DNA of 64,000 nucleotides from Nitrospirota bacterium (GCA_016207905.1 JACQZC010000045.1:3614-67613), one strand, 5' to 3'; positions 42,822 through 64,000 are shown, numbered from the stretch's first letter. The notes: a model not told the origin generated them from the letters alone. Made by a program: numbers and translations.

Positions 42822-45506
42822 TTAAAATGTATGTCCTATGCTGAAATGAATCTCGGAAGTGCTCTCTCCTGGCTCTCTATCAATCTTATATCCATAGTCT
42901 AATCTTAGTGGTCCAACAGGCGTAATGTATCTCAAGCCAATGCCTGTTGTGTATTTGAGCTTGTCTAACTGCACATCATCCAGTTCGGGCCACACGTTTC
43001 CTGCGTCGAGGAAACCCACGAAGCTCCAGCCTCTTCCAACATACGCCCTGAGTTCGAGGTTTCCTAATGTAAAGGCACTGCCTCCTGTTGGAGTGCCAAC
43101 TGTGCTTTTTGGTCCCAGGTCATCCTGAGCGTATCCCCTTACAGTGCTTCTTCCACCTAAAAAGAATCTTTCTATGAGAGGAAGCTCCTTTGTCCTTCCA
43201 AAGCCCTTTGCAGTTCCACCCTTTAGAGACACTGCCGATACAAGCCATTTTGTCAGCCTCTTATAGGTGCTTACATGCACAATCAGCTTTACAAAGTCGG
43301 TCTCGGAAAACAGAAACTCCGAAGATGCTATCTTCAGGGACACGCCTGCAAACATGCCTCTTCTTGGGTCAAAGGCATTGTCCCTTGTGTCGTAAACCAC
43401 ACCTGGCATTATACTGCTTATAGATAAAGTGCCTGTGTCTTCTTTTGTGAGGATTACATCAGGCAGGACATCGAATGTCTTGGCTATGGAAAACTCATAG
43501 AATATATCAGCCTTTGCCCATCTGCCAATTCTCTTTTCGGTGCCTACGCTTACTGCATGCCTTTTGATTCTGTATCGGGTCTGTCCTGTATCTATATTTT
43601 TTTCCTTTTTTTGTTCCGTGAGAAACAATGCCCTCAGGGGAATTCGCCTGCCTAAAAACCATGGCTCATAATAATTCAGTATATGTCTGCTTTCGAGTGT
43701 GCTGAGTTCGGCCCTCAAGCTGACCTGTCTGTTCATTCCAAAAAGGTTCCTGTAGCTTATATCCACAAACCCTCTGTACCTTTCGTATTCTCCGTATCCC
43801 AGACCAAACTCCACTGCGCCTGCCTTGCCTTCTTGGACCTTTATGGCAATATCAGCCTTGTCTCCATATCTGTCCTGCACCTCTATCTTGGCATCGGTAA
43901 AGATTCCAAGCCTGTAAAGTCTCTGCCTCGATGTTCCAAACTGAGAGAAATTAAGGGGCATGCCCTCGCTATAATCCAGCTCCCTTCTTATCACCACTGT
44001 TTTGCTCCTACGGTTACCTTGAATTATGGTTTTCCCAATGAATACCTTACTGCCCTCTTCTATAGAGAATACGACCTCTGCGGTATTTTCAACAATGTTT
44101 CTTTGTATCTCGACCTTTGCATCGACAAAGCCTTCTTTGCCGTAGAGGTCTATAATCCTGAGCCTTGCATCTGCTATGTCAATCTCATTGTAAGGATCCC
44201 CCTCGCTTATAGGAATGACATCTTCAAGCTCAGCCTCCGAGAAATGTTTCACACCCATCAGTCTGACAGAAGAAACCGTGACCCTGCTACCTTCGGTTAT
44301 TTTTATATTAATGCTTGCAGAAGAATCCCTGATATCTACCTCAGGCTCTGCGACTTCTACATTTAGATACCCCAATGCCATATAGAACTCCTTGATTACA
44401 GCAATATCTGTTTCGAGGGCATTGGGGTTGAATAATCCTTTTTCTTTTAAGGTCATAATCTCTTTTAGCCTCTCTTTCGCGATGCTTACTGCCTCAAATC
44501 TTATCGAGCCAACCTTAACCTTTCTGCCCTCGAAAATGAAAAGATTAAGGCTTATCTCATCGTCATATCTGCTTATAACCGGTGCAACTTTTGCAAAAGG
44601 ATAGCCATTTTCGTGGTAAAGCGAAAGTGTCTTTGAGACAGCCTCTTCTACAAGCTCATCCCTGAAATCTCCTGTCTCGAAAAACGGAAGGACAGCCTGA
44701 ATCGCCCTCGCCTTTACTTTCTCGTTGCCCTGAATATTAACCATGAGCCTTTTGCCTCTGAGGATTGTTAGATGAAGCGTGGTATCTTCAAAGGAATACT
44801 CAACCACAGGGTCAAGATAGCCTGATTTCCTGAGACGCAGACTCAGTGCTTCGATATCGGTCTTTAGCTTAAATTGGTCATATACATCGCCTTCTTTCAG
44901 CTCCATTAAAGACCGCATTTTTTTTTGTTCTTTTTCATTTTTTGGCATGTCTGAGATAACGATTTTTTTAATCCTAATCGGGGTTCCTTCTTTTATGCTG
45001 AGGACAAGATTAATGCTGTTTGGCTTAGCCCTTTTAATCTCCAGCAAAACCTCTACATTGGGAAACCCGGAAAATGCATATAGAGCCTTAAGTCTTTTTT
45101 GGGCTTCCTCGACCATGTCGTATCTCATGGGCATTTCTTCTTTCAGGAGAAAGTGCTTCTTTATAAATTTATCCTTGAGATATGAATTCCCCCTGACCTT
45201 TATACCCTCTATAAAATCCCTCTCTTTTACCTTTACCCTTAAAACGCCCTCCGAAGAAAGCTCGATTAAGATGTCCTCGAATATTCCCTTAAGGAACGCC
45301 CTTTTGATACCTCTTTCTAACCTTTCGGGGTCAATGACCTCTCCTTCTTTAAGGTCTAAAAGATAGACAATCTCCTCTTTCTCTATAGAGTAAATTCCCT
45401 CTACCTCTATTTGTCTTATTGGAGTTTGCGTTTCCGCAAGAAGGTTCTTTGCAGACAGTAATAGGGCAGAGACTGAAAGCAGTAAAGAGAGGGCTATCTT
45501 TGTCAT
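42822..45506 (-). CDS. bamA: Omp85-family outer membrane protein assembly factor (BamA; multiple POTRA domains + beta-barrel)
   Basis: 894 aa with a signal peptide, repeated POTRA-like units, a C-terminal barrel, and the terminal motif ...HFSIGHTF. Confidence 0.9.
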   Translation of the reverse strand: MTKIALSLLLSVSALLLSAKNLLAETQTPIRQIEVEGIYSIEKEEIVYLLDLKEGEVIDPERLERGIKRAFLKGIFEDILIELSSEGVLRVKVKERDFIEGIKVRGNSYLKDKFIKKHFLLKEEMPMRYDMVEEAQKRLKALYAFSGFPNVEVLLEIKRAKPNSINLVLSIKEGTPIRIKKIVISDMPKNEKEQKKMRSLMELKEGDVYDQFKLKTDIEALSLRLRKSGYLDPVVEYSFEDTTLHLTILRGKRLMVNIQGNEKVKARAIQAVLPFFETGDFRDELVEEAVSKTLSLYHENGYPFAKVAPVISRYDDEISLNLFIFEGRKVKVGSIRFEAVSIAKERLKEIMTLKEKGLFNPNALETDIAVIKEFYMALGYLNVEVAEPEVDIRDSSASINIKITEGSRVTVSSVRLMGVKHFSEAELEDVIPISEGDPYNEIDIADARLRIIDLYGKEGFVDAKVEIQRNIVENTAEVVFSIEEGSKVFIGKTIIQGNRRSKTVVIRRELDYSEGMPLNFSQFGTSRQRLYRLGIFTDAKIEVQDRYGDKADIAIKVQEGKAGAVEFGLGYGEYERYRGFVDISYRNLFGMNRQVSLRAELSTLESRHILNYYEPWFLGRRIPLRALFLTEQKKEKNIDTGQTRYRIKRHAVSVGTEKRIGRWAKADIFYEFSIAKTFDVLPDVILTKEDTGTLSISSIMPGVVYDTRDNAFDPRRGMFAGVSLKIASSEFLFSETDFVKLIVHVSTYKRLTKWLVSAVSLKGGTAKGFGRTKELPLIERFFLGGRSTVRGYAQDDLGPKSTVGTPTGGSAFTLGNLELRAYVGRGWSFVGFLDAGNVWPELDDVQLDKLKYTTGIGLRYITPVGPLRLDYGYKIDREPGESTSEIHFSIGHTF

Positions 45507-48500
45507 TTGAACTGAAACCTGAATTTTATATCTCCTCCGACACTGCCCCTTTCATCCCTCAGCCCTACTAAAGAGACATTGCCTGCAAGGAAATACTCTA
45601 ATTTGAGCACCTGCTCTTGAGCACCAACTGCAGTGGAGTAAGTGGCAAAGAGCCGCTCTCCTAAAAGTTTTTTTGTAACAGTAACCCTCGGCACAATAGA
45701 GCCTGATGATTTGGATATGTAGGGGTCTATCGTAGCCCTGTCTATGCCTGTGATGTCCTTTAACCTCTCCTCTATCACATCCTGATATTTGCCTGTAAGG
45801 AAAGATGCAGCTTCGGCTGCACCAATACTGCCTTCGAGTCCCTTCAGGTTTTCTCCAAAGTCTCCGACTGTCAACAGGCTTAAGATTTCAATCTCTCCAA
45901 GCGGTGGGTCAGAATAAAGGGACATGTGAAAGCGGTCTACCTGTCCTTCGAGGCTTAATCGGATATGGTATCCCTTTGAGAATGTCTCGGCTATTATTCC
46001 GAAAAATGGTCCTGCCCTCAGGTGCTCTGCATAATCGGCAGTTGCAGTGAGTATCTGAAATTCACTATTTCTGAAATAAACCCTTCCATCTTTAGCCTCT
46101 ATCCTTCCAAATAAAAGCGGACTGCCCACTGTGCCTTTTAAAACCATATCTACTTTAAGGGATGCCCTTGCTATGTTGTTGTCAACTGTAATATTGTCCG
46201 AGCCAGAAACCCTTACGCTCAGATTCATTCTGTCAAGGTAAGGGCTTGGTTTGCCTGCCTGTTTTGTTTTTTTAGATGATATAAGCCAGCTTTTCCACTC
46301 AAAGCTCTCTCTGTACCTTGCCCTGTTTATCGTCAACTCTCCTGTAATGTCCTGTGATTGTGCCGTGCCTTTTAAAACGAGATTTCCTCCTAAGTTCACC
46401 GAAAAGTCCTTTGAGATGGAGGCAGTAATATCTTTTATCTCTGTGTCCAGATAAAGCCTTTCTATCTCAAAACCGCTTAGACTAATCATACCTTTAAGTC
46501 CAATCTCTCCTCCGCCAAACCTTGCGTGTGCCCTCTGAAAAACAATCCTTCTACCTTCTACTGTAAGATAAGCATTTATTGCAGTAAGATGTTGTGGAAT
46601 GCCTTTCAAGGCAACCGTTCCGTCAGAGACAGAAAGACTGCCATTTATCACTGGATTTTCCCAGTCTCCTTCAAGCGTAAGCATAAAGTCGGAAGTGCCT
46701 CTCAGTATCGAAATCCTATTTGAAACACCCTTCAGGATCGAAAGTGGAGATTTGCCTTCAATGGAGATGTCATAGTTTCTGCCAACCTCAACTGCCCCGG
46801 CTATACTAAAAGAGGCATCTCCACTTCTCATTACGGTCTTTAAGAGAGAGACCTTTCTGTCAAAGACCTTGAGCCTTACCTCAGAGTCATTGATAATCTC
46901 TTGACCAAACATAGCCACATTCAGATACGAGAGCCCTGCATCTGCCTCGATATGGTTCTTTGTGCCTTTAAGATAAACAGAGCCCTTCATGGTTAATGCA
47001 GAATCCGCAGGCACATCCCTTAGAAATGAAAAAAGCAGAAAATCATATCTTCCGCTTCCTATATCTACCTCTGCGCTCCATGGCAGTTCCTCTGCAAGGG
47101 TTGCATTTGCCTTGATGCCGAGCATTCCATCGAGCACTTTAGCATCTAAAAAGACATCCCTTCCTTTTAGCTCTGCCTTTAGGATGCCGTCTCCTATAGC
47201 TTTCCCCTTAAAAATTCCTTCTGAAAGCCATCCCTTAAGAGACACCTGAGGGTTATCGAAGGACCCCCTGCCCTCCATGAGAAAGTTTAATGCATAGTTG
47301 ACAATGATTGGCTTTCGGAGTAAATCCTTCAGATGAAGTCGGGTTGAAGATGCGGTGAAGCTAAAATCCTTGTTCCTCGAAAACCTACCCTTCAGGGATA
47401 AGGAGGACTCAGCCTGCCTGAATATTGCATTATCCACATTGAAGTCATTTAAGTCATAGCAATAACGAAATGACGCAGTGGAAATCGGAATATCGTATAG
47501 CTCTACATCTTTTAGTTGGGCAGAGCCTGAAATCAGGGGTGCTGTGCCCTTTATAGTTAAATCGGAGCTAAGACTGCCCTTTGAAGGTATATCTGTCTTT
47601 AAGACCTTTATTAGTCCTCCGAGGTCAGCCTTTTGGACTGAGACCGAAAGGTCATAGTCTGGCTCTTTTAAGTCAAACACCTTTAGGGCAGAAGGAAACA
47701 TTACCTTGCCCTTTGCCGAAATCTCTCCTCCTTCGCCCAGACCAATTAATTGTCTTATCTCAAGGAGGCTTTTCCTATAAGAAAATGAGCTTACGACATT
47801 GCCTATCGCATAGTCATCCAATCTTGCCCCTGACGATATAACATCCATCTCTACGAGAGGGTCATCGAATGTTCCAGTCACCTTGCCTCCTATCTCGGCT
47901 TGACCTGTGAGTCTCTTAAAATAAGGAGACATAAGGTCAAATACATCCGAGGTTATGCCTGTGCCTGACATCTCGATAGTCTTTGAGTTTAAATTTAGTG
48001 TGCCACTGATAAGGGCATCCGACTCAGCAGTCTTGATGCTTATCTCGGAAAGGCTGAGCACTCGGTCTGTCATCTGAAAACTTCCATCCGCATACTTTAT
48101 TCTGCCCAGAGGATGATTAAGGGTCTCAACCGAGACAAATGAAAACCTGCCTTTTGGATTAAAGGCATAACCCGAAGAATAAAGCTCGCCTGTCACCTTT
48201 CCAGATGGAAGCCTTAATCTGGAAACCTTGATTAATTCAATCAAAGGAGGGCTATCAACATCCCTGACCCTAACCATGACAGAGTAGGGCTTTCCTTTCG
48301 GGATGCTCATGGATGCCTCAAGTGTGCCTTTGCCATTATAAAGTCTTGCTATTCCGTTTTTAAACTTCATGCTCCCGTCTTCGTAAGAGACACTGCACTT
48401 AAGGTCATCCACCTTAACGCCAAAAAGCGTGCCTTTTTTCAATCTTGCATCTGCATTGCCTTTAATGTCATTTATATTGCCTGTGAGGTTTCCCCTAAAG

Positions 48501-49438
48501 CTTATTAAGCCGTCAAGAGGCTTTTTTGGTTTTTTTGCCCTTAAAAGCTCCATTAGAGTCTCAAGATAAAAATCCCCTTTCAGAGCCATATCTACAAACG
48601 GCATGGTGATGTCCTTTTGAAGTTTTATAGTGCCATTTGCGTATATCCTTCCCTCGCCTCTTCTTTTTAGTCCGAATATCTTTTTGATTGAATCCACAAG
48701 GACATTTAGCGTTACAGAGAAACTGCCTGTTTCGTCCGTATAAAAACCCGTGCTATTCATCAAAGAGCCATAAGAGGTTATCTTAAGTGCCTTGAGGTCA
48801 ACGCCATCCTTTCTGAGGATGGCGTTTCCATTAGCCTCGGCTTTTATCTCAGGCCAGTTCTTAAATGTCCCTGAAAGCTCCGAGGCAGAAAAGCTCACAT
48901 CAGGTGCCTCCCTTATATTTATATCTGCATTTACTCCCTTTCCTGAGGCAGTGAGCAGGTTTGCCTCATCATAAAAAGAAAACCCCGAGTCTTTAATCTC
49001 AACTGTCTTTACCCTGACCTTGACTATTCTTTTTCTGTTTGCATAGCTCTTAAGGTTTTTCAATACATCTTCTGCATCTGCCCTTGTTGTGGATACCTGA
49101 GCAGTGCCAATATAAAGCCTGCTTATCTCGAATTCGCCCCTTAGGATTCCAGAAAGCCCTATGTATGATTTTATAGTGTCTGCACTAAAAAGCCTTTTGC
49201 CCTGCTCGTTAAACATCTTTATATCCGTTACGCCGATAAAAAAAGGGAATATGTTTATATACATCTTCTGAGCAATCACCTGATTGCCTGTTGCGGTTTG
49301 AAGCTGTCGCTGGATGACCTTCTTAAGGAAATTAGAAGTATAAGGGCCCCTTAGGGCAAATGTAACCGTTCCTGCAAGGAAGAGTAAAAGCAGGATGCAT
49401 ATCGACTTCTTAAGTCCTAACCTTTTAAATATGCCCAC
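45503..49438 (-). CDS. tamB: translocation and assembly module protein TamB (AsmA-like, DUF490 C-terminus)
   Basis: 1311 aa with an N-terminal TM anchor, a long beta-rich repetitive body, and a DUF490-like C-terminus. Its stop overlaps the bamA start (ATGA). Confidence 0.85.
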   Translation of the reverse strand: MGIFKRLGLKKSICILLLLFLAGTVTFALRGPYTSNFLKKVIQRQLQTATGNQVIAQKMYINIFPFFIGVTDIKMFNEQGKRLFSADTIKSYIGLSGILRGEFEISRLYIGTAQVSTTRADAEDVLKNLKSYANRKRIVKVRVKTVEIKDSGFSFYDEANLLTASGKGVNADINIREAPDVSFSASELSGTFKNWPEIKAEANGNAILRKDGVDLKALKITSYGSLMNSTGFYTDETGSFSVTLNVLVDSIKKIFGLKRRGEGRIYANGTIKLQKDITMPFVDMALKGDFYLETLMELLRAKKPKKPLDGLISFRGNLTGNINDIKGNADARLKKGTLFGVKVDDLKCSVSYEDGSMKFKNGIARLYNGKGTLEASMSIPKGKPYSVMVRVRDVDSPPLIELIKVSRLRLPSGKVTGELYSSGYAFNPKGRFSFVSVETLNHPLGRIKYADGSFQMTDRVLSLSEISIKTAESDALISGTLNLNSKTIEMSGTGITSDVFDLMSPYFKRLTGQAEIGGKVTGTFDDPLVEMDVISSGARLDDYAIGNVVSSFSYRKSLLEIRQLIGLGEGGEISAKGKVMFPSALKVFDLKEPDYDLSVSVQKADLGGLIKVLKTDIPSKGSLSSDLTIKGTAPLISGSAQLKDVELYDIPISTASFRYCYDLNDFNVDNAIFRQAESSLSLKGRFSRNKDFSFTASSTRLHLKDLLRKPIIVNYALNFLMEGRGSFDNPQVSLKGWLSEGIFKGKAIGDGILKAELKGRDVFLDAKVLDGMLGIKANATLAEELPWSAEVDIGSGRYDFLLFSFLRDVPADSALTMKGSVYLKGTKNHIEADAGLSYLNVAMFGQEIINDSEVRLKVFDRKVSLLKTVMRSGDASFSIAGAVEVGRNYDISIEGKSPLSILKGVSNRISILRGTSDFMLTLEGDWENPVINGSLSVSDGTVALKGIPQHLTAINAYLTVEGRRIVFQRAHARFGGGEIGLKGMISLSGFEIERLYLDTEIKDITASISKDFSVNLGGNLVLKGTAQSQDITGELTINRARYRESFEWKSWLISSKKTKQAGKPSPYLDRMNLSVRVSGSDNITVDNNIARASLKVDMVLKGTVGSPLLFGRIEAKDGRVYFRNSEFQILTATADYAEHLRAGPFFGIIAETFSKGYHIRLSLEGQVDRFHMSLYSDPPLGEIEILSLLTVGDFGENLKGLEGSIGAAEAASFLTGKYQDVIEERLKDITGIDRATIDPYISKSSGSIVPRVTVTKKLLGERLFATYSTAVGAQEQVLKLEYFLAGNVSLVGLRDERGSVGGDIKFRFQFK

Positions 49439-50463: not shown

Positions 50464-51294
50464 CTAACCTGTAATCTTGGGCCTTTCTTTTGCATCTATT
50501 TTGTCTTTGCGTTTACTGGTTAATTTCTTTATTGATTCTTCGGCTGGCAAATCTTCTGGCATTGTTCCACCGAGTTTTTTAATAGTGGCACGGACTTCCG
50601 CGCCTACTTTCTGATGTGTATTAATAGCACCCCTTTCATTATTTATGCTATCTCGGATAAGCTTTTCTTCGGTCTGTGTGATTCTAAACTCATTTGCAGC
50701 CAATTCGGTTCTTCCTGCACAATCAAGCAGGTCTTCCTTAGAAGGTATATTCTTTTTCTGCTTTATTTCAGCTAACCCCATTTCATAGAGACCTCTATAA
50801 CCAGCACTATGAAATAAAGCGTATTTTTGAACACCAGCGTTTTGAGCGGTGCTTGTTAAACTAAGATTTGCATTTTTGACTCGTTCTCTAAGCTGAAGAC
50901 GCCGTTCATCTGCTGTAAGTTTGTCATATTTTTCCTGTCGCCGAGTTTGGATAGCAAAATAGGTTTGTGCTATGCCTATTTCCGGCTTACTACTATCACC
51001 ATTCATTGCAATTAGATAGCAAGCATATCTCGTGAGAAAATAGTCTCCTTTTTTTCGTTGAGCGCCACTCCCTATTAAGACCATTTTCATGGTATCAAGA
51101 AAATGGTCATTAGGGTCAATTCCTGTGCTTTCACATGCCATACGGGCTTTTTGGATTACCTTCTGAAAATTTTCCCATGAGGAGTATCCAAGAATTTGTT
51201 GAATATCACGCCCCATCCAGTATTCCCCACCGTTTTTTGTAGACTTCCTTGCATTGTCTAACTGCCTGATTATCTTATCTAAATCTTCTTCCAT
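50464..51294 (-). CDS. dinD: DNA-damage-inducible protein D
   Basis: Strong resemblance to E. coli DinD as I recall it (TYFAIQTRRQE, GRTELAANEFRITQTEEKL, LGGTMPEDLP). Confidence 0.85.
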   Translation of the reverse strand: MEEDLDKIIRQLDNARKSTKNGGEYWMGRDIQQILGYSSWENFQKVIQKARMACESTGIDPNDHFLDTMKMVLIGSGAQRKKGDYFLTRYACYLIAMNGDSSKPEIGIAQTYFAIQTRRQEKYDKLTADERRLQLRERVKNANLSLTSTAQNAGVQKYALFHSAGYRGLYEMGLAEIKQKKNIPSKEDLLDCAGRTELAANEFRITQTEEKLIRDSINNERGAINTHQKVGAEVRATIKKLGGTMPEDLPAEESIKKLTSKRKDKIDAKERPKITG

Positions 51295-51933: not shown

Positions 51934-53361
51934 TTAAAACTCCAGCACTTCACTCACAGGTTTTACACCCTGAGCCTGCTTATAGGGAGATATACTAAAC
52001 TGGATGGGTATATTAACTCGCTTGGCATCTAAGATGTCCTTTATCGTATAAATCTGTATCTTGGGATAATTCTTTTTTGTTAAATTTGATTTATAAAACC
52101 CTTCTGTTGTAGCCTCTCTTATCATTGGTGTAGTAGGGTCTTCCAAAGTCAGAAGTATCCCTAAAACCGCAGATTCTCTTTTTATCACCTGGCCTAACTC
52201 TCTTATATCCTTGACAGAGACCTTTCCACTTTTAACAGATACTATAGCCTTCTTGACTTCCTTCTTATCATCCATGAAAAAGATATAACCATCTATGCCT
52301 GTATCAGCACCTTTTTTCTTATCACCATATGGTCTTGCACTAATCAATGACAAAGCCCACCACTGAAACTGATAACGGTTCTGAGAGGCAAGCTCCATTG
52401 CTCCTGAGAGGTCTTCAGGCTCACCAATGACTTTGTAGTCTTTTTTAGGTTTTAATCCGAACATATCTTTTAATCGCCACTTTATAAGGTTTATTGCAAG
52501 ATGGGTTATATCAATGCCGAGCCATTTGCGGTTAAGTTTTTGTGCAACTGCATTGGCAGTTCCACAGCCACAGAATGGGTCAAGAACAATATCACCCTTA
52601 TTTGAGGAAGCCTTGATGATTTTTTCTAAAAGTGCTTCTGGTTTTTGAGTCGGATAACCGAGACGCTCTTTAGCCATTGCATTTATTGTCGGTATTTTCC
52701 AAACATCGGAAGGATGTCTATGCTGTCCAGTTGACCTTGTAGCGGTGAGACTCCCAGTAGCAATTCTTCTTAAAACTTCATCACTTCTCTTTTCCATAAC
52801 TTCTTTTGGTCTAAAGATATATTTATCACTTTTTGAATATCTAAATATAATGTCGTGCTTTCGGGAAAAGTCCTTTTTAGGGATGCCTCCCGTTTCATAC
52901 CACCATATAACTTCATTTCTAAAATTCTTTTTCCCGAATATTGTATCCATTAATATTTTTAAATAATGGCTTGCAGTGGGGTCGCAATGTAGATAAATTG
53001 AGCCAGTATTTTTAAGAACCCTTTTTAGCTCTAAAAGGCGTATGCACATCATTGTGAGATATGCCATTACATCATTAGGCTTTATGAACTGTCTGAATGC
53101 CTTCATCATTTCAACCACACTGGTAGGTGCGGTGTCAACTATCTCCTGAAATGTCCTTTCTGTTTCCTCTGTCCAGTGCCATGTATCTTCAAAGGCTGTA
53201 ATTTGAGCTTTTGATGGCTCACCTGCTGGCTCTGCAAAAAGGATGTTGTAATATGTCTTTGAATTAAAAGGAGGGTCTAAGTAAATCAGGTCAATGGAAT
53301 TGTCAGGGATATGGGTTCTCAGGACATTAAGGTTGTCGCCATAGTAAAGGGTATTTTCCAT
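51934..53361 (-). CDS. beta-class N4/N6 DNA methyltransferase (PF01555-like) fused to a C-terminal Mrr-like PD-(D/E)xK-fold domain
   Basis: Motif IV IDLIYLDPPFNS lies N-terminal to motif I DPFCGCGT, the beta-class order. The C-terminal 140 aa contain GADTGIDGYIFF...AIVSVKSGK, resembling the Mrr catalytic core. Confidence 0.88.
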   Translation of the reverse strand: MENTLYYGDNLNVLRTHIPDNSIDLIYLDPPFNSKTYYNILFAEPAGEPSKAQITAFEDTWHWTEETERTFQEIVDTAPTSVVEMMKAFRQFIKPNDVMAYLTMMCIRLLELKRVLKNTGSIYLHCDPTASHYLKILMDTIFGKKNFRNEVIWWYETGGIPKKDFSRKHDIIFRYSKSDKYIFRPKEVMEKRSDEVLRRIATGSLTATRSTGQHRHPSDVWKIPTINAMAKERLGYPTQKPEALLEKIIKASSNKGDIVLDPFCGCGTANAVAQKLNRKWLGIDITHLAINLIKWRLKDMFGLKPKKDYKVIGEPEDLSGAMELASQNRYQFQWWALSLISARPYGDKKKGADTGIDGYIFFMDDKKEVKKAIVSVKSGKVSVKDIRELGQVIKRESAVLGILLTLEDPTTPMIREATTEGFYKSNLTKKNYPKIQIYTIKDILDAKRVNIPIQFSISPYKQAQGVKPVSEVLEF

Positions 53362-58562: not shown

Positions 58563-60743
58563 TCAAACCTGTCTCTTTATGCTCTCTGCAACCGAGCTTC
58601 CGATAGAAGGGACAGATGTTAGCGCATCGACCGATGCCTCTTTGATGTCTTTGATGCCCTTAAATCCTGCACCGAAGAGGCTTCTTGCCCTAACCCTTCC
58701 AATGCCTTTGAGGCTGACAAGCTCAAGAAGTTCTTCCTTGACACCATATGAAAGTCTGACCCTGAGCCTGTTTATATCCTTTACCTCTTCCTTAATGCCA
58801 AAGACCTTGCCTATCTCGCTTGAGGAATAAATGAGCCAATTGCTTAGCTCTACGAGGCTTCTCAGGTCTCCAGGGCCAATTCCAAAGTGGCTTGTTATTT
58901 TATCCTCAGGCATCTCAAGTATCCACTGCATGAGCAAGGATGCAGTCTTAAGTTGAGAGAGGCTCTCATCAGTGGGATATTCCTCTTTTTCTGAAATCAA
59001 AAGCTTATCCTGATGTGCATAGAAAACATCGAGCATCTCCTCATGGTCTTTCTTTCTAATCGTAAGCCTCATCATGTCAGGGGTGCGGGCTATAAGGTGA
59101 AACATGGGGAAAGCCTCTTTAGGCTTTGGCATACGAATACCATCCCGAATTATCACTGCACTCATTGGGTCTATGTAAAGCTCAGAGACCCTTTTTCCAA
59201 ACCTTGTTGCATGAAGCTCCTCTTTCACCGAAACCACCATGCCTTCTTCCGAAAGAAAATCCACTATGTCCTCTGCAATACCCATAAGGAAAGACACACC
59301 CCTTTGAAAGCCGGCAAATGTAGTGCCTAAGAATCCTTTAAGCTCTTTCGTTGTGCCTGTAAATCCACCTGCTATAGATGCAAGTATGTGAGTTCTAAGG
59401 GCTGATGGTGTTATAAGCTGTGAGAGGATTTTTTCGGGTCTGCCTTTTATATATTTTTCAAAAAGTCTTTGTTCGTCCCTGATACTTCGGGCTATAAGGA
59501 CAGTCTCTCCGTATTTATCGTATCCGGGTCTTCCTGCCCTTCCCGACATCTGTTTTATCTCGATAACTGGAATCGGCAGTTGACCTATGCCTGACTCATA
59601 CCTCAGCCAGTCCCTTATGATGACCCTTCTTGAGGGCAGGTTTAGTCCCATTGCGAGGGTTGTCGTTGAGGCTATGAGCTTTATCTTATTCTGCCTGAAT
59701 GCATCCTCTATGAGTTTTCTCTGGGTGTAGTTAATGCCTGCATGATGAAATGAAACACCTTTTGCAATCTGCTCTGAAAGTTTTCTACAAAGGTGCGTAG
59801 GCTCAGAGACCGCTGAAAGCACCTCCTCTGAAAGTTCCTTCAGTTCATCTGTCTTTTCTTTTTGGAGGATAGCGCCTACATACTCCGAGCACCTTCTTGA
59901 AACCGCCTCTGTCGATTTCCTTGTACTCACAAACACAATAGCCTGCCCCCCTTCCTTTATTGTCTCAAGTGAGAGGTCAACCACATCTATCCTACTTTCT
60001 TGAGGACAATGCCTGACAGTGCCATCACGAAACATTGTCTTTCCGTTATAGTAAACCCCTTCTTTTAGAGGAACAGGTCTCCAATCAGACTCTATGAGCC
60101 TTGCATTAAGCCACCTCGATATCTCATCTGCATTAGGGATTGTGGCACTCAGGGCTATAAGCCTTAAACAGGGGTTTATTGCCCTAAGACGGCTTAGGAC
60201 TATTTCGAGGGTAGGACCTCTACGGGAGTCTCCCATGAGGTGTATCTCGTCTGCTATGACCAATCCCACATCCTTTAGCCAGCCTGCATGATGCCTTATA
60301 AGGGAGTCAATCTTTTCGTTTGTTGCAATTATAAGGTCTGCACTGTGAAGCCATGGCTCTTCCCTGTCATAATCTCCTGTGCTTAAGGCAACCATCATGC
60401 CCAATGCCTTATATTTCTTTAAGAAGTCCTCGTATTTTTCCCTTGCCAATGCCCTCAAGGGCACAAGATATATTGTCTTTTGCCTTGCCTCGAGGAATAC
60501 CTTGAGTATTGACATCTCGGCTATAAGGGTCTTCCCAGAGGCAGTTGGCGCAGAGATGACAAACGACTCCTCTCCCTTAAGAAGTCCTGCCTGAATCGCC
60601 ATTTCCTGCGGAGGATAAAGCTCCTTAAGACCTGTTTCAGAAATGGCATCTATCAGCTCTCGAGAGCCACCATACTGCCTAATGTCATTTATATTCATAG
60701 GCTTAATTATCGCACATCCTGTTAGATTGTTGGCAATTTTCAC
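58563..60743 (-). CDS. Ski2-like superfamily 2 DNA helicase, archaeal Hel308/Hjm type
   Basis: Motif I APTASGKT, motif II DEIH, motif III SAT, motif VI QMSGRAGRPG, winged-helix/ratchet regions, and a C-terminal helix-hairpin-helix segment (LKGIGRVRARSL...VPSIGSSVAESI). The probable start is at 60698. Confidence 0.85.
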   Translation of the reverse strand: MKIANNLTGCAIIKPMNINDIRQYGGSRELIDAISETGLKELYPPQEMAIQAGLLKGEESFVISAPTASGKTLIAEMSILKVFLEARQKTIYLVPLRALAREKYEDFLKKYKALGMMVALSTGDYDREEPWLHSADLIIATNEKIDSLIRHHAGWLKDVGLVIADEIHLMGDSRRGPTLEIVLSRLRAINPCLRLIALSATIPNADEISRWLNARLIESDWRPVPLKEGVYYNGKTMFRDGTVRHCPQESRIDVVDLSLETIKEGGQAIVFVSTRKSTEAVSRRCSEYVGAILQKEKTDELKELSEEVLSAVSEPTHLCRKLSEQIAKGVSFHHAGINYTQRKLIEDAFRQNKIKLIASTTTLAMGLNLPSRRVIIRDWLRYESGIGQLPIPVIEIKQMSGRAGRPGYDKYGETVLIARSIRDEQRLFEKYIKGRPEKILSQLITPSALRTHILASIAGGFTGTTKELKGFLGTTFAGFQRGVSFLMGIAEDIVDFLSEEGMVVSVKEELHATRFGKRVSELYIDPMSAVIIRDGIRMPKPKEAFPMFHLIARTPDMMRLTIRKKDHEEMLDVFYAHQDKLLISEKEEYPTDESLSQLKTASLLMQWILEMPEDKITSHFGIGPGDLRSLVELSNWLIYSSSEIGKVFGIKEEVKDINRLRVRLSYGVKEELLELVSLKGIGRVRARSLFGAGFKGIKDIKEASVDALTSVPSIGSSVAESIKRQV

Positions 60744-60852
60744 TTTTTTCTGCCTTTTAATTTAATGTTAATAGGGGAAGGGGGGTATCCCCTAACATAT
60801 TGATTTTAAAAGATTCTTATTTTAATTTTGCTTTAATAATTAACATTAATTT

Positions 60853-60882
60853 TCCGTCTTCCTGAGCCTGCCGAAGGGTCTC
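60853..60882 (-). repeat. REP-like unit related to unit B at 53496-53524
   Basis: The minus strand reads GAGACCCTTCGGCAGGCTCAGGAAGACGGA, compared with GAGATTGCTTCGGCAAGCCTCGCAATGACA at 53496. They share a GAGA...CTTCGGCA...CTC...GAC scaffold. Confidence 0.4.
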
Positions 60883-60910
60883 TCCTTTCCCCCTTCAAAC
60901 TATAGTTAAA

Positions 60911-60940
60911 ATAATAGCAGTTTAATCCCTCTTTTGTCAA
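60911..60940 (-). promoter_or_regulatory. candidate sigma70 promoter for the helicase gene
   Basis: The minus strand has TTGACA (60940-60935), an 18-nt spacer, then TATTAT (60916-60911). Confidence 0.4.
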
Positions 60941-61025
60941 GTAAAAAATGAACTATGGTTTATACGGCTTCTCATTCTGAGCAATAGGTCTTTGGGGTCG
61001 AATTTCCTCAGCCTGTCAAGCTTAT

Positions 61026-61487
61026 TCAGAAGTCCTCGGCATTCCTTGTAACAATTCTTGTTTCATCATCGTTTAGTCCGTAAAGCCTGTAGACTATTTC
61101 ATCTATTAGGTTATCCGTGTTTTTGATTTTTGCCTTTAGTGGCTCAAGAACTGACATGCTTTTTGTGAAGTGCCTTTCAAAGAGTTCCTGAGTTTTTCTG
61201 TCAGAAGGGTCTATTGGGATGCTCCGTTTGTTCTTTTTAAGGATTTCAAGAAAATACTTAAAGTCATGCTCATGGTATTCCTTGATTGCTGTCTTATTTG
61301 ACAGGCTCTCAATCCCTACCTCTACCTCCCGCTCAAGCCATCTTAGAAAGTCCTTGATTTCCTCGTTCTTCTTTTTGTTCATTTCAATCATCTGCTCTGC
61401 AAGATAGGCAAGGAGGTCGTGAATGGTGTCATTCCTGTCGGCTTTAAGCTCCTCTGCCACCCATTTTATAGTATTATGAAAAATCAT
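61026..61487 (-). CDS. detached C-terminal module of the Eco57I/type IIG-like methyltransferase
   Basis: 153 aa. IHDLLAYLAEQMIEMNKKKNEEIKDFLRWLE...KKNKRSIPIDPSDRK...LEPLKAKIKNTDNLIDEIVYRLYGLNDDETRIV matches the C-terminal tail that, as I recall, is normally fused to these enzymes (...TDxLIDxxVYxLYGLTxEEIxIVE). Its ATG overlaps the upstream stop (ATGA). Confidence 0.7.
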   Translation of the reverse strand: MIFHNTIKWVAEELKADRNDTIHDLLAYLAEQMIEMNKKKNEEIKDFLRWLEREVEVGIESLSNKTAIKEYHEHDFKYFLEILKKNKRSIPIDPSDRKTQELFERHFTKSMSVLEPLKAKIKNTDNLIDEIVYRLYGLNDDETRIVTRNAEDF

Positions 61488-64000
61488 TTCTCTTTTTCCT
61501 TAAATGCCTTAGAAAGCCTTTTAACCCATATCTCTATAAGCTGTAATAGATTACCTGTGTCAGCCTCATGGAGTGCATTCAGGTATCTTTCTTTTTCCTC
61601 AGGTTCTACAGATGCTGTCTCAGCAGGCGGAAGTCTTAACTTGAAAAGTATTGCAGTTAATAGAATTCTTCCTACACGTCCATTGAAGTCCCTGAAAGGA
61701 TGAATCCACTGAAACCGCCAGTCTGCATAGGCAAGTGTCTCTGATATTTTTTCTATATCTTTTTCTTTTGAAGCAAATGATAATCTTACTGCTAAATCCT
61801 CACAATACAATCGCACAAGAACAGGCGCTTCATAAAAGGGTGGAGGGGTGTGTGTGCCTACTTTGACATTTACATCTCTGAACCTTCCTGCCCAGTCAGG
61901 GAAGAGCGAACCTGCTATATCATTATGAAGTTTGCAAATCCATTCAGAGGTAAAATATATATCTTCAGGAGAGGTTTCAATAATGGCTTCTATGGTTTTT
62001 GCAACTGATACCGCAAGGATTTCAGAGACTTCGGAATAAGTTTTTATCCCCTGTGCTGTCTCAAAATAGCGGGTTGAATTTAGCGGACGGGTGCTGTCTT
62101 GTCCTTCTTTAGGAGTTCCTTCAGACGGTTTATACTCACTGGCTCCTTCTCGAACTCCATGGACTTCACTACCCAGTCCAGAACCTTCTTCTGATACGCC
62201 TTCCGCAGGGACTTTATATCTGCGTGGTTTTTCTGCCACTCCTTGAAATCTTGTTGAGCCTTTCTTATCTCTGCCTTCGTCATCTTTGTCTCCCTTTTCT
62301 TTATTCTGCCATTTATCAGCATTTAAGGCAATAGTATTGATTTCTGTCTGATACAACCTTATAGCTTCAGAAACCCTTTTCTTTCGTTCCTTTTCAGGGG
62401 TGGTGAAGGAGATGCGGGGAATGGGGAAAGATTTAATGTCATCTGGATAGGTATGAAGTTGTCCCCCAATAAATGAAGTAAAATACCATCTGTTTAAAGA
62501 AGAGTTTATTATTGATAAACAAAAAGCGAGATTGTATTTTTCAGAAAGATTTTCATCTCCTTGAGAGATTTTTATCTTTCGAGAAGTTACATTTCTCAAG
62601 AGATATTTTGGCACTACAAGGCTAACAGTATGCTCAGTATAAAATCCATTCGTATCAAGTGAGGCCTGTACCCCGTTCTTACCAGTTACATCAGGTATAA
62701 TCAGTTTAGTATTCTCGAATAGTTCAGGAAACATTGGATTATAAAGTTCTTCGGGGCGGTAAAGTAAAAATTTTTTCCTCGGCGTAATCGAATATCGCCT
62801 TACATCTTCTCCATCTAACATTGGTTTAGCATCTTTTATCTGTCCATTATCTACCACATACTTTTTAATATTTCCACTTCTTGCACCCCAATTTGTGTAA
62901 CAAATTTGCCCCAGTCTTACTGACCTGCCGCCAATTTTATCTTTCAAATGAGAATAGGCATCGTTTATCTCTAAACGGAACATTTTATATGGTATTTTAC
63001 TTAATAATGCTGATGGAATATGATTTAGGTGTCCTTTAATTCCATGTAACCAAGGATCTTCTTCTTGATTCAGCACTGTTATTTCTGAAGGGCAACCACC
63101 TTTTCCAAAAAATAAAAGAATGTTTCGTACTGTAGCGTCAGGAAAGACCTTCCAGCCTGAAAGATTTACGATGTGTAATGGAGAACCATTTTGAAGTAAA
63201 AGATCTCTTACAGGTTCGCCATAGCGCTCATATAAAAAAGGGTACGGTATAATGAAACCAAACACTCCACTATTTGACAACAATTCGTAGCCTTGACCAA
63301 TAAAAGGAATATAGATATCAAATCTCCCCTTGACCAATTTAGAGATGTGTAATAAATAATCTCGGTTTTCCTTTGGTATATTCTCAACATTCACATAAGG
63401 CGGATTACCAATCACGCAATCAAATCCCGGGTTCTCTTTTTCCCCCCTCTCTGTGTAAAACACCTCCGGGAACTCTATCCTCCAGTGGAAAAACATTTTC
63501 TCTTTTGCAACCTGTAAAGCCTTTTTACATTTTTCCACTATTTCAGGATATGTCTCTTTTTCATATTCTAATGTATACGCAAGCTGGTCCACTCTGCTAT
63601 AACTTTCCCCCATATCCATAAAGTGCTTTGCCGTGGCTACATCAAGCCTTCTGCGAATTGGCTCTACTTCCTTTTGAGCAGAATTAAAAAGCTCATTGCT
63701 TTTTTTAGCCTCGGTTATAGTTGCATCCGTTAATTCTGAAACTTGTGTTACAAAAGATAAAGTGCGTTTCACTTTGGCAAAAGATTCCGTATCAGTAAAC
63801 TTCACTATGTCATCACTTGAAGTATCAAGAATTTTAGGTACTATAATAGATGAAATATCCAGCACCCCGATTAAGCTATTCCCGCATTTCAAATGATGGT
63901 CAAGGAATGAAAGTGGAGCTCCTAAAGTGAATGAGTCAAGCCATAAAGAAAGCTTTGCAAGCTCAACCGCCATATCATTAAGGTCAACGCCATAGATAAC
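61484..64000 (-). CDS. gamma-class N6-adenine DNA methyltransferase (Eco57I/type IIG- or PglX-like, with TaqI_C-type specificity domain) fused in frame to a C-terminal Fic domain; the 5' end lies beyond the window
   Basis: The frame is open to the window edge (VIYGVDLNDMAVELAKLSLWL...). Motifs are FHWRIEFPEVF, motif IV VIGNPPYV, TRD-like sequence ending FPIPRISFTTPEKERKK, a G/E/K-rich linker, then a Fic fold with HPFRDFNGRVGR at 61667-61702. Confidence 0.8.
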   Translation of the reverse strand, partial: VIYGVDLNDMAVELAKLSLWLDSFTLGAPLSFLDHHLKCGNSLIGVLDISSIIVPKILDTSSDDIVKFTDTESFAKVKRTLSFVTQVSELTDATITEAKKSNELFNSAQKEVEPIRRRLDVATAKHFMDMGESYSRVDQLAYTLEYEKETYPEIVEKCKKALQVAKEKMFFHWRIEFPEVFYTERGEKENPGFDCVIGNPPYVNVENIPKENRDYLLHISKLVKGRFDIYIPFIGQGYELLSNSGVFGFIIPYPFLYERYGEPVRDLLLQNGSPLHIVNLSGWKVFPDATVRNILLFFGKGGCPSEITVLNQEEDPWLHGIKGHLNHIPSALLSKIPYKMFRLEINDAYSHLKDKIGGRSVRLGQICYTNWGARSGNIKKYVVDNGQIKDAKPMLDGEDVRRYSITPRKKFLLYRPEELYNPMFPELFENTKLIIPDVTGKNGVQASLDTNGFYTEHTVSLVVPKYLLRNVTSRKIKISQGDENLSEKYNLAFCLSIINSSLNRWYFTSFIGGQLHTYPDDIKSFPIPRISFTTPEKERKKRVSEAIRLYQTEINTIALNADKWQNKEKGDKDDEGRDKKGSTRFQGVAEKPRRYKVPAEGVSEEGSGLGSEVHGVREGASEYKPSEGTPKEGQDSTRPLNSTRYFETAQGIKTYSEVSEILAVSVAKTIEAIIETSPEDIYFTSEWICKLHNDIAGSLFPDWAGRFRDVNVKVGTHTPPPFYEAPVLVRLYCEDLAVRLSFASKEKDIEKISETLAYADWRFQWIHPFRDFNGRVGRILLTAILFKLRLPPAETASVEPEEKERYLNALHEADTGNLLQLIEIWVKRLSKAFKEKEK
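62080..62283 (-). CDS. embedded alternative-frame ORF (67 aa), candidate Fic-associated antitoxin or N-terminal Fic segment
   Basis: GGGAG (62294-62290) lies 6 nt upstream of the ATG at 62283. The product MTKAEIRKAQQDFKEWQKNHADIKSLRKAYQKKVLDWVVKSMEFEKEPVSINRLKELLKKDKTAPVR looks helical and protein-like, whereas the main frame here is low-complexity. It ends immediately 5' of the Fic domain. Confidence 0.4.
   Translation of the reverse strand: MTKAEIRKAQQDFKEWQKNHADIKSLRKAYQKKVLDWVVKSMEFEKEPVSINRLKELLKKDKTAPVR

Follow-up and report, generated by a model that had tools for sequence, protein, structure and literature searches.

A type IIG restriction enzyme gene carrying a fused Fic domain, with a putative Fic antitoxin gene nested in the linker

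The window analysed here is a 64,000-nucleotide stretch of DNA from a Nitrospirota bacterium (GCA_016207905.1 JACQZC010000045.1:3614-67613). At its end, the minus strand carries a restriction-modification (RM) gene into which a Fic cassette is inserted, followed by a small ORF that encodes the displaced C-terminal tail of the enzyme. The features of the locus are the following.

61484..64000, minus strand: 3' part (838 codons plus stop) of the RM-Fic fusion gene, open from 64000 to the TGA at 61484-61486.
63143..63997, minus strand: gamma-class N6-adenine methyltransferase (MTase) catalytic region (Pfam Eco57I), with motif IV NPPY at 63395-63406.
62420..62827, minus strand: TaqI_C-like target recognition domain (TRD).
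62381..62428, minus strand: conserved junction peptide FPIPRISFTTPEKERK, the last segment shared with Fic-less relatives before the insertion point.
62075..62347, minus strand: linker frame of the fusion protein (about 90 codons), predicted to be disordered and overlapping the nested gene.
62080..62283, minus strand: nested putative antitoxin gene (67 aa plus stop) in the +1 frame relative to the fusion ORF, MTKAEIRKAQQDFKEWQKNHADIKSLRKAYQKKVLDWVVKSMEFEKEPVSINRLKELLKKDKTAPVR, with a Shine-Dalgarno sequence GGGAG at 62290-62294; an upstream ATG at 62322 would give 80 aa.
61487..62074, minus strand: Fic (FIDO) catalytic core, with an N-terminal beta-hairpin TRYFET..GIKTY, a flap, and the active-site motif HPFRDFNGRVGR at 61667-61702.
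61026..61487, minus strand: split-off C-terminal tail of the type IIG enzyme (153 aa), the ATG of which overlaps the TGA of the fusion ORF (ATGA).

A sequence-only reading of this stretch had described a Fic domain inserted in an Eco57I/type IIG-like methyltransferase gene, with the conserved tail split off as a separate ORF, and this observation is confirmed by the present analysis. A Pfam search of the window product gives Eco57I (fragment residues 2-286, E 2.5e-36), TaqI_C (fragment residues 392-527, E 1.4e-10), and Fic (E 1.3e-12, 48.9 bits against a cut-off of 24), all above the gathering scores, and the Fic motif lies exactly where that reading had placed it. Four independent Logan assemblies are 100% identical across the junction, which shows that the arrangement is not an assembly error. 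Some details need to be corrected, however. The ORF of 829 codons is an artefact of the window edge, because the reading frame runs off position 64000. The N-terminal ~620 codons are seen in L001, a locus 100% identical to the window, which gives a full protein of 1456 aa as called (about 1480 aa from a GTG further upstream). The Fic domain had been described as having no start codon of its own; the linker has no ATG but does have an in-frame TTG (62356) and GTG (62239). The insert, described as foreign-looking, is not compositionally foreign, its GC of 0.39-0.41 being like that of the rest of the gene. Finally, the G/E/K-rich "linker" is a dual-coding stretch that hides an 80-codon ORF (62080-62322), which was already present in the mechanical list of ORFs. 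This was the main point missed by the sequence-only reading.

The 1456-aa product has an HSDR_N/MmeI_N-like N-terminus followed by MmeI_Mtase, Eco57I, TaqI_C, and Fic. The N-terminal nuclease domain, which lies outside the window, shows the PD-(D/E)xK signature as RPDYALF...ILEAKYW, although the Pfam matches to HSDR_N (E 5e-4) and MmeI_N are weak. The methyltransferase motifs DPAMGSGHFL and VIGNPPYV are found in the same chain, and the PADLOC model REase_MTase_IIG matches with E 1e-31. The TRD is also in this chain, with no separate S or M gene; the neighbors are an aminotransferase, HPPK, MazE/PIN, a Hel308-like helicase, and a radical SAM protein. An archaeal host, suggested by the Hel308-like helicase, was rejected because BamA, TamB, and TsaB are encoded in the window. 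Assignment to other systems was considered and is not supported. The NCBIfam model BREX_1_MTaseX (PglX) scores 93.5 bits against a cut-off of 500, and there are no BREX genes in the flanks. The PADLOC DrmMI hit covers only the methyltransferase core, and no DISARM genes lie in L001 or the window flanks. A search of positions 60500-64000 returned no Rfam family.

The 153-aa ORF is the normal C-terminal tail of the family. It matches the last ~95 positions of a PADLOC type IIG model (968-1063/1066, E 4e-7) and aligns at 43-74% identity to the in-frame C-termini of 57 Fic-less homologues. Among the 120 closest homologues, 57 have the tail fused and no Fic, 38 have Fic and no tail, and none have both. 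A Fic-less relative (P0003), which shares 83% identity in the TRD, joins the two parts seamlessly, its sequence ...PEKERKEFFKEAVKLYKGSKYEDIIKWADYEL... bridging the two window products, although it is not syntenic with the window. In all 8 GTDB loci of this family where the junction was examined, as in the window, a tail ORF of 148-155 aa starts at -4, 0, or +2 from the Fic stop, and the dN/dS among split tails is 0.06-0.20. The tail is predicted by AF2 (pLDDT 91) to form a hairpin of two ~38-residue helices, but no PDB relatives were found by sequence or by fold, only generic coiled coils. A programmed frameshift joining Fic to the tail was considered and rejected, as there is no slippery site, and the tail ORFs of other loci sit in different frames or offsets. 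Likewise, the tail was rejected as the antitoxin, because it has no S-x-x-x-E-(G/N) motif specific to Fic loci and is the same domain in Fic-less enzymes. A search for direct repeats (target-site duplication) flanking the insert gave a best local alignment score of 19, against a shuffle mean of 17.0 (sd 2.7), with 116 of 500 shuffles doing as well, and this possibility was therefore rejected.

The Fic core is predicted with an AF2 pLDDT of about 90. FICD is the best match, both by sequence (E 2e-17) and by Foldseek (E 7e-7, 185 columns, rmsd about 3 Å), while the class-I toxins FicT/VbhT reach a TM of 0.73. Compared with the motif HxFx(D/E)(G/A)N(G/K)RxxR, HPFRDFNGRVGR has every catalytic residue but carries F at the G/A position (HPFxDFNGR). 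The residues H, F, D, N, G, R, and R are invariant in 23 sequences, the histidine being H1385 of the 1456-aa protein, and the unusual F is invariant in 23/23 sequences and conserved across nearly the whole clade, such that the activity or the nucleotide substrate may differ from the canonical ones. No cis inhibitory helix is seen before the core in the AF2 model, where module residues 1-86 are disordered (pLDDT below 50) and are followed by a beta-hairpin. We initially took TRYFET, and then Y-x-P-x-E-G, for the inhibitory helix in the fusion frame, but these fall in the beta-hairpin and the disordered part and neither is conserved between subclades. No conserved (S/T)xxxE(G/N) occurs in the linker frame.

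An S-x-x-x-E inhibitory motif is instead found in the nested gene, which looks like a class-I Fic antitoxin (FicA/VbhA-like). In 27 unfused relatives, a small ORF with SMALENEP, SMAFENQP, or SMTFEGEP lies upstream of Fic, its stop overlapping the toxin start. The homologous ORF is nested in the +1 frame in all 37 long-ORF loci examined (in L020, one of these, it was identified by eye). S41 and E45 of the (S/T)xxxE inhibitory motif are invariant in 21 sequences, although the window copy (SMEFEK) has K where the canonical motif has G/N. Substitutions follow the antitoxin frame, with nucleotide differences at codon positions 1/2/3 of 0.138/0.159/0.287, and the amino acid identity is 74% in this frame versus 62% in the linker frame. 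The linker frame has no stops in 13/13 sequences, against 6-9 stops in the third frame, and a stop-free linker frame arises in only 0.04% of synonymous resamplings, indicating that it is kept open by selection. The nested protein has no Pfam, NCBIfam, or PDB match and no detectable sequence similarity to VbhA/FicA, and its 452 database clusters are all "hypothetical". Its assignment therefore rests on motif, size, and position.

The architecture is not unique. In addition to the 38 of the 120 closest homologues, at least 23 GTDB species representatives have MTase-Fic fusions, some of them sitting in NCBI nr as "Fic family protein". The same cassette is fused to two further type IIG backbones, HsdS, Cas3 (with a nested putative antitoxin gene, in a type I-U/I-G-like cas context), Cas_GSU0054, an AlbA_2 protein, and, in one locus (L082), a P-type cation ATPase. 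It also lies next to type-I-like MTase+S genes. Full-text literature searches found no description of a type IIG-Fic or Cas3-Fic fusion or of a nested Fic antitoxin. The sequence-only reading had named a common, already catalogued architecture as a condition that would count against it, and this condition is thus half fulfilled.

On the basis of these results, we propose that the locus encodes a single-chain type IIG restriction-modification enzyme into which a class-I Fic toxin-antitoxin cassette (FicT/FicA-like) has been grafted, between the TRD and the conserved helical tail. In this model, three products would be made from one mRNA, namely, R-M-TRD-linker-Fic, in which the toxin, lacking an ATG of its own, is covalently attached to the enzyme; a 67-aa antitoxin, translated from its own Shine-Dalgarno/ATG inside the linker-coding stretch, that supplies the inhibitory glutamate in trans; and the 153-aa tail, re-initiated at the ATGA overlap, which presumably rejoins the enzyme non-covalently. 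The domain identities, the insertion point, the purifying selection on the tail, the antitoxin frame, and the Fic catalytic residues, the selection keeping the linker frame open, and the recurrence of the arrangement are established by the analysis. What is inferred, on the other hand, is the function: that the enzyme cleaves and methylates DNA, that the Fic protein is toxic and neutralized by the small protein, that the antitoxin holds the tethered Fic domain inactive, and that upon its loss or displacement (host shut-off by phage, or a change in the state of the restriction enzyme) the Fic domain nucleotidylylates a cellular or phage target, acting as a second line of defense (abortive infection or growth arrest) behind restriction. 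Nothing shows that restriction and Fic activation are coupled, and no experiment shows toxicity, neutralization, or defense. The Fic core matches the PADLOC defense candidate PDC-S04 (E 1e-23) and SoFic (E 3e-15), but PDC-S04 gave no protection when tested in an E. coli isolate (10.1101/2024.12.20.629700). We consider this model somewhat more likely than not. The interpretation given in the sequence-only reading, a restriction enzyme coupled to an AMPylation-type toxin in the way PrrC is coupled to type I RM, is thus supported in part: the site of the cassette, the separate and translationally coupled tail, the existence of an uninterrupted relative, and the absence of an ATG for Fic hold, while a naked PrrC-like toxin is replaced by a captured class-I Fic toxin-antitoxin module, and the coupling of the toxin to restriction as a defense effector remains a hypothesis.

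An alternative that is possible but less likely is that of a selfish, promoter-less Fic toxin-antitoxin cassette that lands at the 3' end of whatever gene lies upstream and borrows its transcription and translation, the fusion being a by-product or an addiction device that stabilizes the island, without functional coupling. The toxin frame is open across the antitoxin gene even in many unfused loci (100-137 codons upstream), making the cassette "fusion-ready", and the ATPase fusion shows that fusion can happen without any immune logic. Cassette remnants with bits of both flanks occur elsewhere (loci L007 and L009), the loci are surrounded by other TA pairs, and the Fic module is 70-79% identical on backbones that are only 30-42% identical, which indicates horizontal movement. 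However, the identified partners are overwhelmingly DNA-targeting immune proteins (type IIG in at least 23 loci, plus HsdS, Cas3, Cas_GSU0054, and AlbA_2). In this family, moreover, the insertion is at one precise site, with a conserved restart of the tail kept across divergence that saturates synonymous sites; the linker frame is actively kept open, and the fusion persists while the TRDs, hypervariable among homologues, are swapped.

It is unlikely, in our view, that the Fic domain is instead a regulatory or accessory enzyme of the restriction complex, which could auto-AMPylate the enzyme to switch between methylation and cleavage, or modify DNA-bound phage proteins or anti-restriction proteins, with the small nested protein as a modulator. 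The closest solved relative by sequence, FICD, is a reversible regulatory AMPylase, the domain is tethered by a ~90-residue flexible linker to a DNA-bound enzyme, and the unusual motif may mean a non-standard reaction, but the unfused relatives have the gene organization of class-I toxin-antitoxin pairs, and the occurrence of the same module with unrelated partners (Cas3, HsdS, ATPase) argues against a partner-specific role. Decay of a restriction gene broken by a foreign insertion, with the 153-aa ORF as a leftover fragment, is very unlikely. The gene is indeed interrupted relative to the 57 intact relatives, and truly decayed tails exist elsewhere (L009 with an internal deletion, L007 truncated), but here the tail ORF is intact, with conserved start-stop coupling and low dN/dS, the nuclease, methyltransferase, and Fic catalytic motifs are intact, and the four assemblies are identical.

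A broader and more tentative reading, which we consider slightly less likely than not, is that a "fusion-ready" Fic cassette exists, the antitoxin gene of which is overprinted by a stop-free frame serving as a universal disordered linker. The toxin could thereby be grafted onto the C-terminus of DNA-targeting immune effectors (type IIG and type I RM subunits, Cas3, Cas_GSU0054), providing them with a covalently tethered suicide or second-line AMPylation module gated by an antitoxin translated from inside the effector's own ORF, and in the present family the graft would additionally have forced the enzyme to become a two-chain protein. If the model holds, it would be a concrete, widespread example of immunity and programmed dormancy or suicide joined in a single polypeptide, occurring in restriction enzymes and in Cas3, and would give a direct handle on the long-standing idea of immunity-suicide coupling. 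It would also be a clear bacterial case of a fully nested, out-of-frame protein gene under selection in both frames, of a kind that annotation pipelines usually miss, and a warning that "low-complexity linkers" in multidomain defense proteins may hide small regulatory genes. Furthermore, it would define an uncatalogued antitoxin family and a Fic clade with a variant active-site motif.

The closest known systems can be compared as follows. In class I Fic modules (VbhT/VbhA, FicT/FicA; Engel et al. 2012, Harms et al. 2015), the Fic core likewise has no inhibitory helix of its own and a small upstream-encoded partner carries (S/T)xxxE(G/N), whereas here the toxin is fused to a ~1170-aa restriction enzyme, the putative antitoxin gene lies entirely inside the fusion ORF in another frame, and the motif variants are HPFxDFNGR and SMEFE(K/R). 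EcoprrI-PrrC (and RloC), in which a type I restriction system is physically coupled to a latent anticodon nuclease, follows the same logic of immunity plus suicide, but here the coupling is covalent, the effector is a Fic nucleotidyl-transferase, and latency is apparently provided by a dedicated antitoxin rather than by the RM enzyme itself. Type IIG/MmeI-like enzymes (Eco57I family) share the N-terminal PD-ExK nuclease, helical spacer, gamma-class N6A methyltransferase, and TaqI_C TRD in one chain, with the variable methyltransferase-C/TRD half between conserved flanks, but here the helical tail is detached and a Fic cassette is inserted before it. SoFic, for which a small downstream anti-SoFic protein, AS1, has been reported (PMC12249575), and PDC-S04 are Fic AMPylases implicated in, or suspected of, phage defense. 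SoFic is, however, a stand-alone class II protein with a cis inhibitory helix, and the NCBIfam SoFic equivalog scores only 20.1 bits here against a cut-off of 550, while PDC-S04 is unvalidated. Fic/DOC toxins associated with cas3-containing type I CRISPR-cas loci have been interpreted as a coupling of immunity and dormancy (Zhang, Doak & Ye 2014, PMC3936711), but as separate genes, whereas the present Fic clade is translationally fused to Cas3. Finally, viral overprinted genes such as the HBV polymerase spacer/preS (PMC9093120) also encode a functional protein in one frame and a disordered tether in the other; the present case is a bacterial chromosomal locus, where the two products would be a toxin's tether and that toxin's antitoxin.

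In the locus, the minus-strand frame of the restriction enzyme is open from its stop codon all the way to the edge of the window, and the elements of interest are arranged as follows.

61484-61486, minus strand: TGA that closes the long fusion ORF
61026-61487, minus strand: 153-aa ORF of the split-off tail, whose ATG overlaps this TGA
61667-61702, minus strand: active-site motif of the Fic domain
about 62347, minus strand: 'RLYQ', the last residues of the enzyme before the insertion
62080-62322, minus strand: 80-codon ORF in the +1 frame relative to the fusion ORF, with a second ATG at 62283

Four Logan contigs are 100% identical to window 60932-64000, and one of them (L001) supplies the missing 5' part. 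The full product is 1456 aa as called in the database, where the gene starts at a TTG (L001:2860). Homologues, however, begin with M-x-x-Q-x-K-LFFWNNQ, which is encoded upstream of this TTG in the open frame (MEKQIKLFFWNNQNLFS...), indicating a GTG start at L001:2788, about 72 nt upstream, which would give a protein of about 1480 aa. Pfam finds a weak HSDR_N/MmeI_N N-terminus, followed by MmeI_Mtase, Eco57I (E 7e-36), TaqI_C (3e-10), and Fic (2e-12). The nuclease motif RPDYALF...ILEAKYW, motif I DPAMGSGHF, and motif IV NPPY are intact. The PADLOC models assign the body as REase_MTase_IIG or DrmMI-like and the C-terminus as PDC-S04/SoFic-like, while the NCBIfam scores for PglX (93 bits against a cut-off of 500) and SoFic (20 against 550) are far below cut-off. 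No BREX or DISARM genes flank the gene, which is therefore a solitary type IIG enzyme.

Among the 120 closest homologues of the long protein, 57 carry the sequence of the 153-aa ORF fused in frame at their C-terminus and have no Fic domain, 38 end in the linker plus Fic and have no tail, and none has both. The homologue P0003 (1346 aa) shares the TRD (83%) and the MTase C-half (76%) of the window enzyme and reads straight from ...PIPRISFTTPEKERKEFFKEAVKLYKGSKYEDIIKWADYELALGRNDT... into the tail. This places the insertion between 'RLYQ' and the first residues of the tail, with an insert of about 864 bp, close to the roughly 850 bp estimated in the sequence-only reading. The observation made there, of a Fic cassette separating the enzyme from its own tail, is thus confirmed.

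In all 8 GTDB genomes of this family where the junction was examined, as in the window, a tail ORF of 148-155 aa follows the Fic stop. It starts at -4 (A/GTGA; 7 of the 9 loci counting the window), 0, or +2. Synonymous sites between these tails are saturated, while dN/dS is 0.06-0.20 where it can be computed, and the tail is therefore a maintained gene rather than a remnant. AF2 folds the tail confidently on its own (pLDDT 91), predicting a long helical hairpin with a small helical insert, for which neither sequence nor fold searches returned a relative in the PDB. Where the cassette sits next to a different RM system, the tail is decayed. Two cassette copies in other contexts, L009:10831-11100 and L007:1900-3400 (a type-I-like MTase+S locus and a Woesearchaeota MAG), carry decayed pieces of the type IIG flanks. 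The tail in L009 has an internal deletion, while L007 has a frameshifted remnant of '...LYQSEIGAIVINSGKW' upstream and a truncated tail downstream. This suggests that the tail is needed only with its own enzyme.

All catalytic residues of the Fic motif are invariant in 23 aligned modules. The position that is normally G/A is an invariant F in these modules, giving HPFxDFNGRxxR, and the wider set of sequences shows the same pattern, with F replacing the canonical residue across nearly the whole clade. In the AF2 model the Fic core is well predicted (module residues 88-280, pLDDT about 90) and is preceded by 86 residues with pLDDT below 50. The closest solved proteins are FICD (hmmsearch E 2e-17; Foldseek E 7e-7), and the class-I toxins FicT and VbhT are also matched over their whole length (TM 0.73). 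No inhibitory helix precedes the core in the model.

The short (~200 aa) free-standing members of the same Fic clade were examined next, and a small ORF was found upstream of, and overlapping, each Fic start. In 27 loci this ORF ends with ...S-M-A-L-E-N-E-P..., ...S-M-A-F-E-N-Q-P..., or ...S-M-T-F-E-G-E-P..., that is, with the (S/T)xxxE(G/N) inhibitory motif that, by established knowledge of the family, defines the antitoxins of class-I Fic modules. The window contains the homologous ORF, namely the 80-codon ORF at 62080-62322. From its second ATG (62283), preceded by GGGAG at a 6-nt spacing, it encodes the putative 67-aa antitoxin MTKAEIRKAQQDFKEWQKNHADIKSLRKAYQKKVLDWVVKSMEFEKEPVSINRLKELLKKDKTAPVR. 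The interpretation given in the sequence-only reading is accordingly supported only in part, since what had been taken for a G/E/K-rich linker is the other reading frame of this gene. For example, ...SEVHGVREGASE... in the fusion frame is ...VKSMEFEKEPV... in the antitoxin frame. Every one of the 37 loci in which the Fic frame is open for more than 150 codons upstream carries the nested ORF; for one of these, L020, this was confirmed by eye, with the motif SVAFER. The residues S41 and E45 are invariant across 21 diverse members. The antitoxin subfamily of the window has K/R in place of G/N after the inhibitory Glu (SMEFE[KR]), and it is possible that this change has co-varied with the F of the Fic active-site loop.

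To establish which frame is selected, we compared 13 ungapped sequences. The nucleotide differences at antitoxin codon positions 1/2/3 are 0.138/0.159/0.287, and the amino-acid identity is 74% in the antitoxin frame, 62% in the linker frame, and 61% in the third frame, which holds 6-9 stops per sequence. The sequence is thus conserved for the antitoxin. The linker frame is nevertheless stop-free in 13/13 sequences, whereas resampling synonymous codons of the window antitoxin with the window's own codon usage gives a mean of 6.0 stops in the linker frame and zero stops in only 0.04% of trials. The linker frame is therefore kept open by selection, and the stretch is dual coding, with one structured product and one disordered tether.

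Across the family, the N-terminal two thirds of the enzyme are 60-87% identical, the MTase C-half and the TRD are hypervariable, and the junction peptide, the Fic module, and the tail are conserved again. A second backbone (homologues P0102-P0111; locus L017) is only 30-42% identical in the N-terminus, yet carries a 74-79% identical Fic core, which indicates cassette exchange. Pattern scanning of GTDB species representatives found 182 stretches that encode a relative of the module, and a profile search of 1.8 billion representative proteins found 78 clusters at E below 1e-30. The antitoxin family has 452 clusters in the 5.8-billion-protein collection, all of them unnamed and none with a Pfam domain.

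The fusion partners include two further type IIG backbones, HsdS (locus L038), Cas3 helicase-HD in several clusters, Cas_GSU0054, an AlbA_2/Schlafen-like protein, and a P-type cation ATPase. In one of the Cas3 cases (L087:975-4157, Logan SRR22808086 contig), the Cas3 helicase-HD protein is fused at its C-terminus to the same Fic clade, and the nested +1-frame antitoxin ORF (MPIMDWKANIQRW...SMAFEGEP..., containing ...RKVARSMAFEGEPVDLEML...) lies inside the linker, with Cas_GSU0053 downstream, in a type I-U/I-G-like context. In the ATPase case (L082:7073-10678), the Fic frame is continuous with a complete P-type cation-transporting ATPase (E1-E2_ATPase ... Cation_ATPase_C), a non-immune partner. 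Unfused copies lie after type-I-like MTase+S genes, an AAA_21 ATPase, and an HD-CE/HATPase protein.

The present analysis shows that one transcription unit carries three overlapping or abutting ORFs, that the toxin has no ATG and can be made as a C-terminal extension of the restriction enzyme, that the antitoxin has its own ribosome-binding site inside that ORF, and that the tail restarts at the stop codon. The remainder of the mechanism is inferred. In this view, the 67-aa protein would insert its glutamate into the Fic nucleotide site and keep the tethered toxin off, as VbhA and FicA do, and the tail would reassemble with the enzyme body. Loss or displacement of the antitoxin, triggered perhaps by phage-induced shut-off, proteolysis, or a conformational change of the DNA-bound enzyme, would then free the Fic domain to modify a target, which purely by analogy with FicT could be GyrB/ParE.

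While the anatomy itself is close to certain, we consider this gated tethered-toxin model as a whole only more likely than not. The main alternative, which appears unlikely but cannot be dismissed, is that the cassette is a selfish, promoter-less TA element that parasitises the translation of whatever lies upstream, defence islands being simply where it lands. The ATPase fusion and the intrinsically open toxin frame in unfused loci argue in favor of this alternative. The strong bias towards DNA-targeting immune proteins, the precise and long-maintained insertion site with tail restart, and the persistence of the fusion through TRD swapping argue against it.

Restriction coupled to a latent toxin is known from EcoprrI-PrrC, as are class-I Fic TA modules. 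Fic genes in cas loci have been noted (PMC3936711), and SoFic is a validated defence protein with a reported small anti-toxin (PMC12249575). As far as full-text literature searches could show, the translational fusion of a class-I Fic toxin to type IIG enzymes and Cas3, the complete nesting of its antitoxin in the alternate frame of the linker, and the resulting two-chain restriction enzyme are not described. The proteins are present in public databases under generic names such as 'Fic family protein', 'Eco57I ... domain-containing protein', and 'fido', and the architecture is therefore catalogued only implicitly.

The surroundings of the RM-Fic loci are consistent with a variable, TA-rich island, since other toxin-antitoxin pairs flank them, namely MazE/PIN in L001 (336-960) and PIN_10/DUF433 and RelB/ParE in the flanks of a further RM-Fic locus, L086. 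All four Logan contigs that carry the locus of the window end at window position 60932, which lies inside a near-consensus sigma-70-like promoter (60911-60940, minus strand; TTGACA-18-TATTAT, 11/12) upstream of the helicase gene, and this may be a strain-variable island boundary in the source population. About 8 kb away (51934-53361 and 50464-51294, both minus strand) there is a second RM-like gene, an N6_N4_Mtase fused to an Mrr_cat/NA-iREase1 nuclease-like domain, and next to it a Bro-N domain protein, suggesting a mobile element or defence island. The helicase (58563-60743, minus strand) is Hel308/Ski2-like, with 'archaeal helicase domain 4' and a C-terminal HhH, and sits in what is otherwise a diderm bacterial genome, probably Nitrospirota-like judging from the closest homologues, with BamA (42822-45506), TamB (45503-49438), and TsaB in the window.
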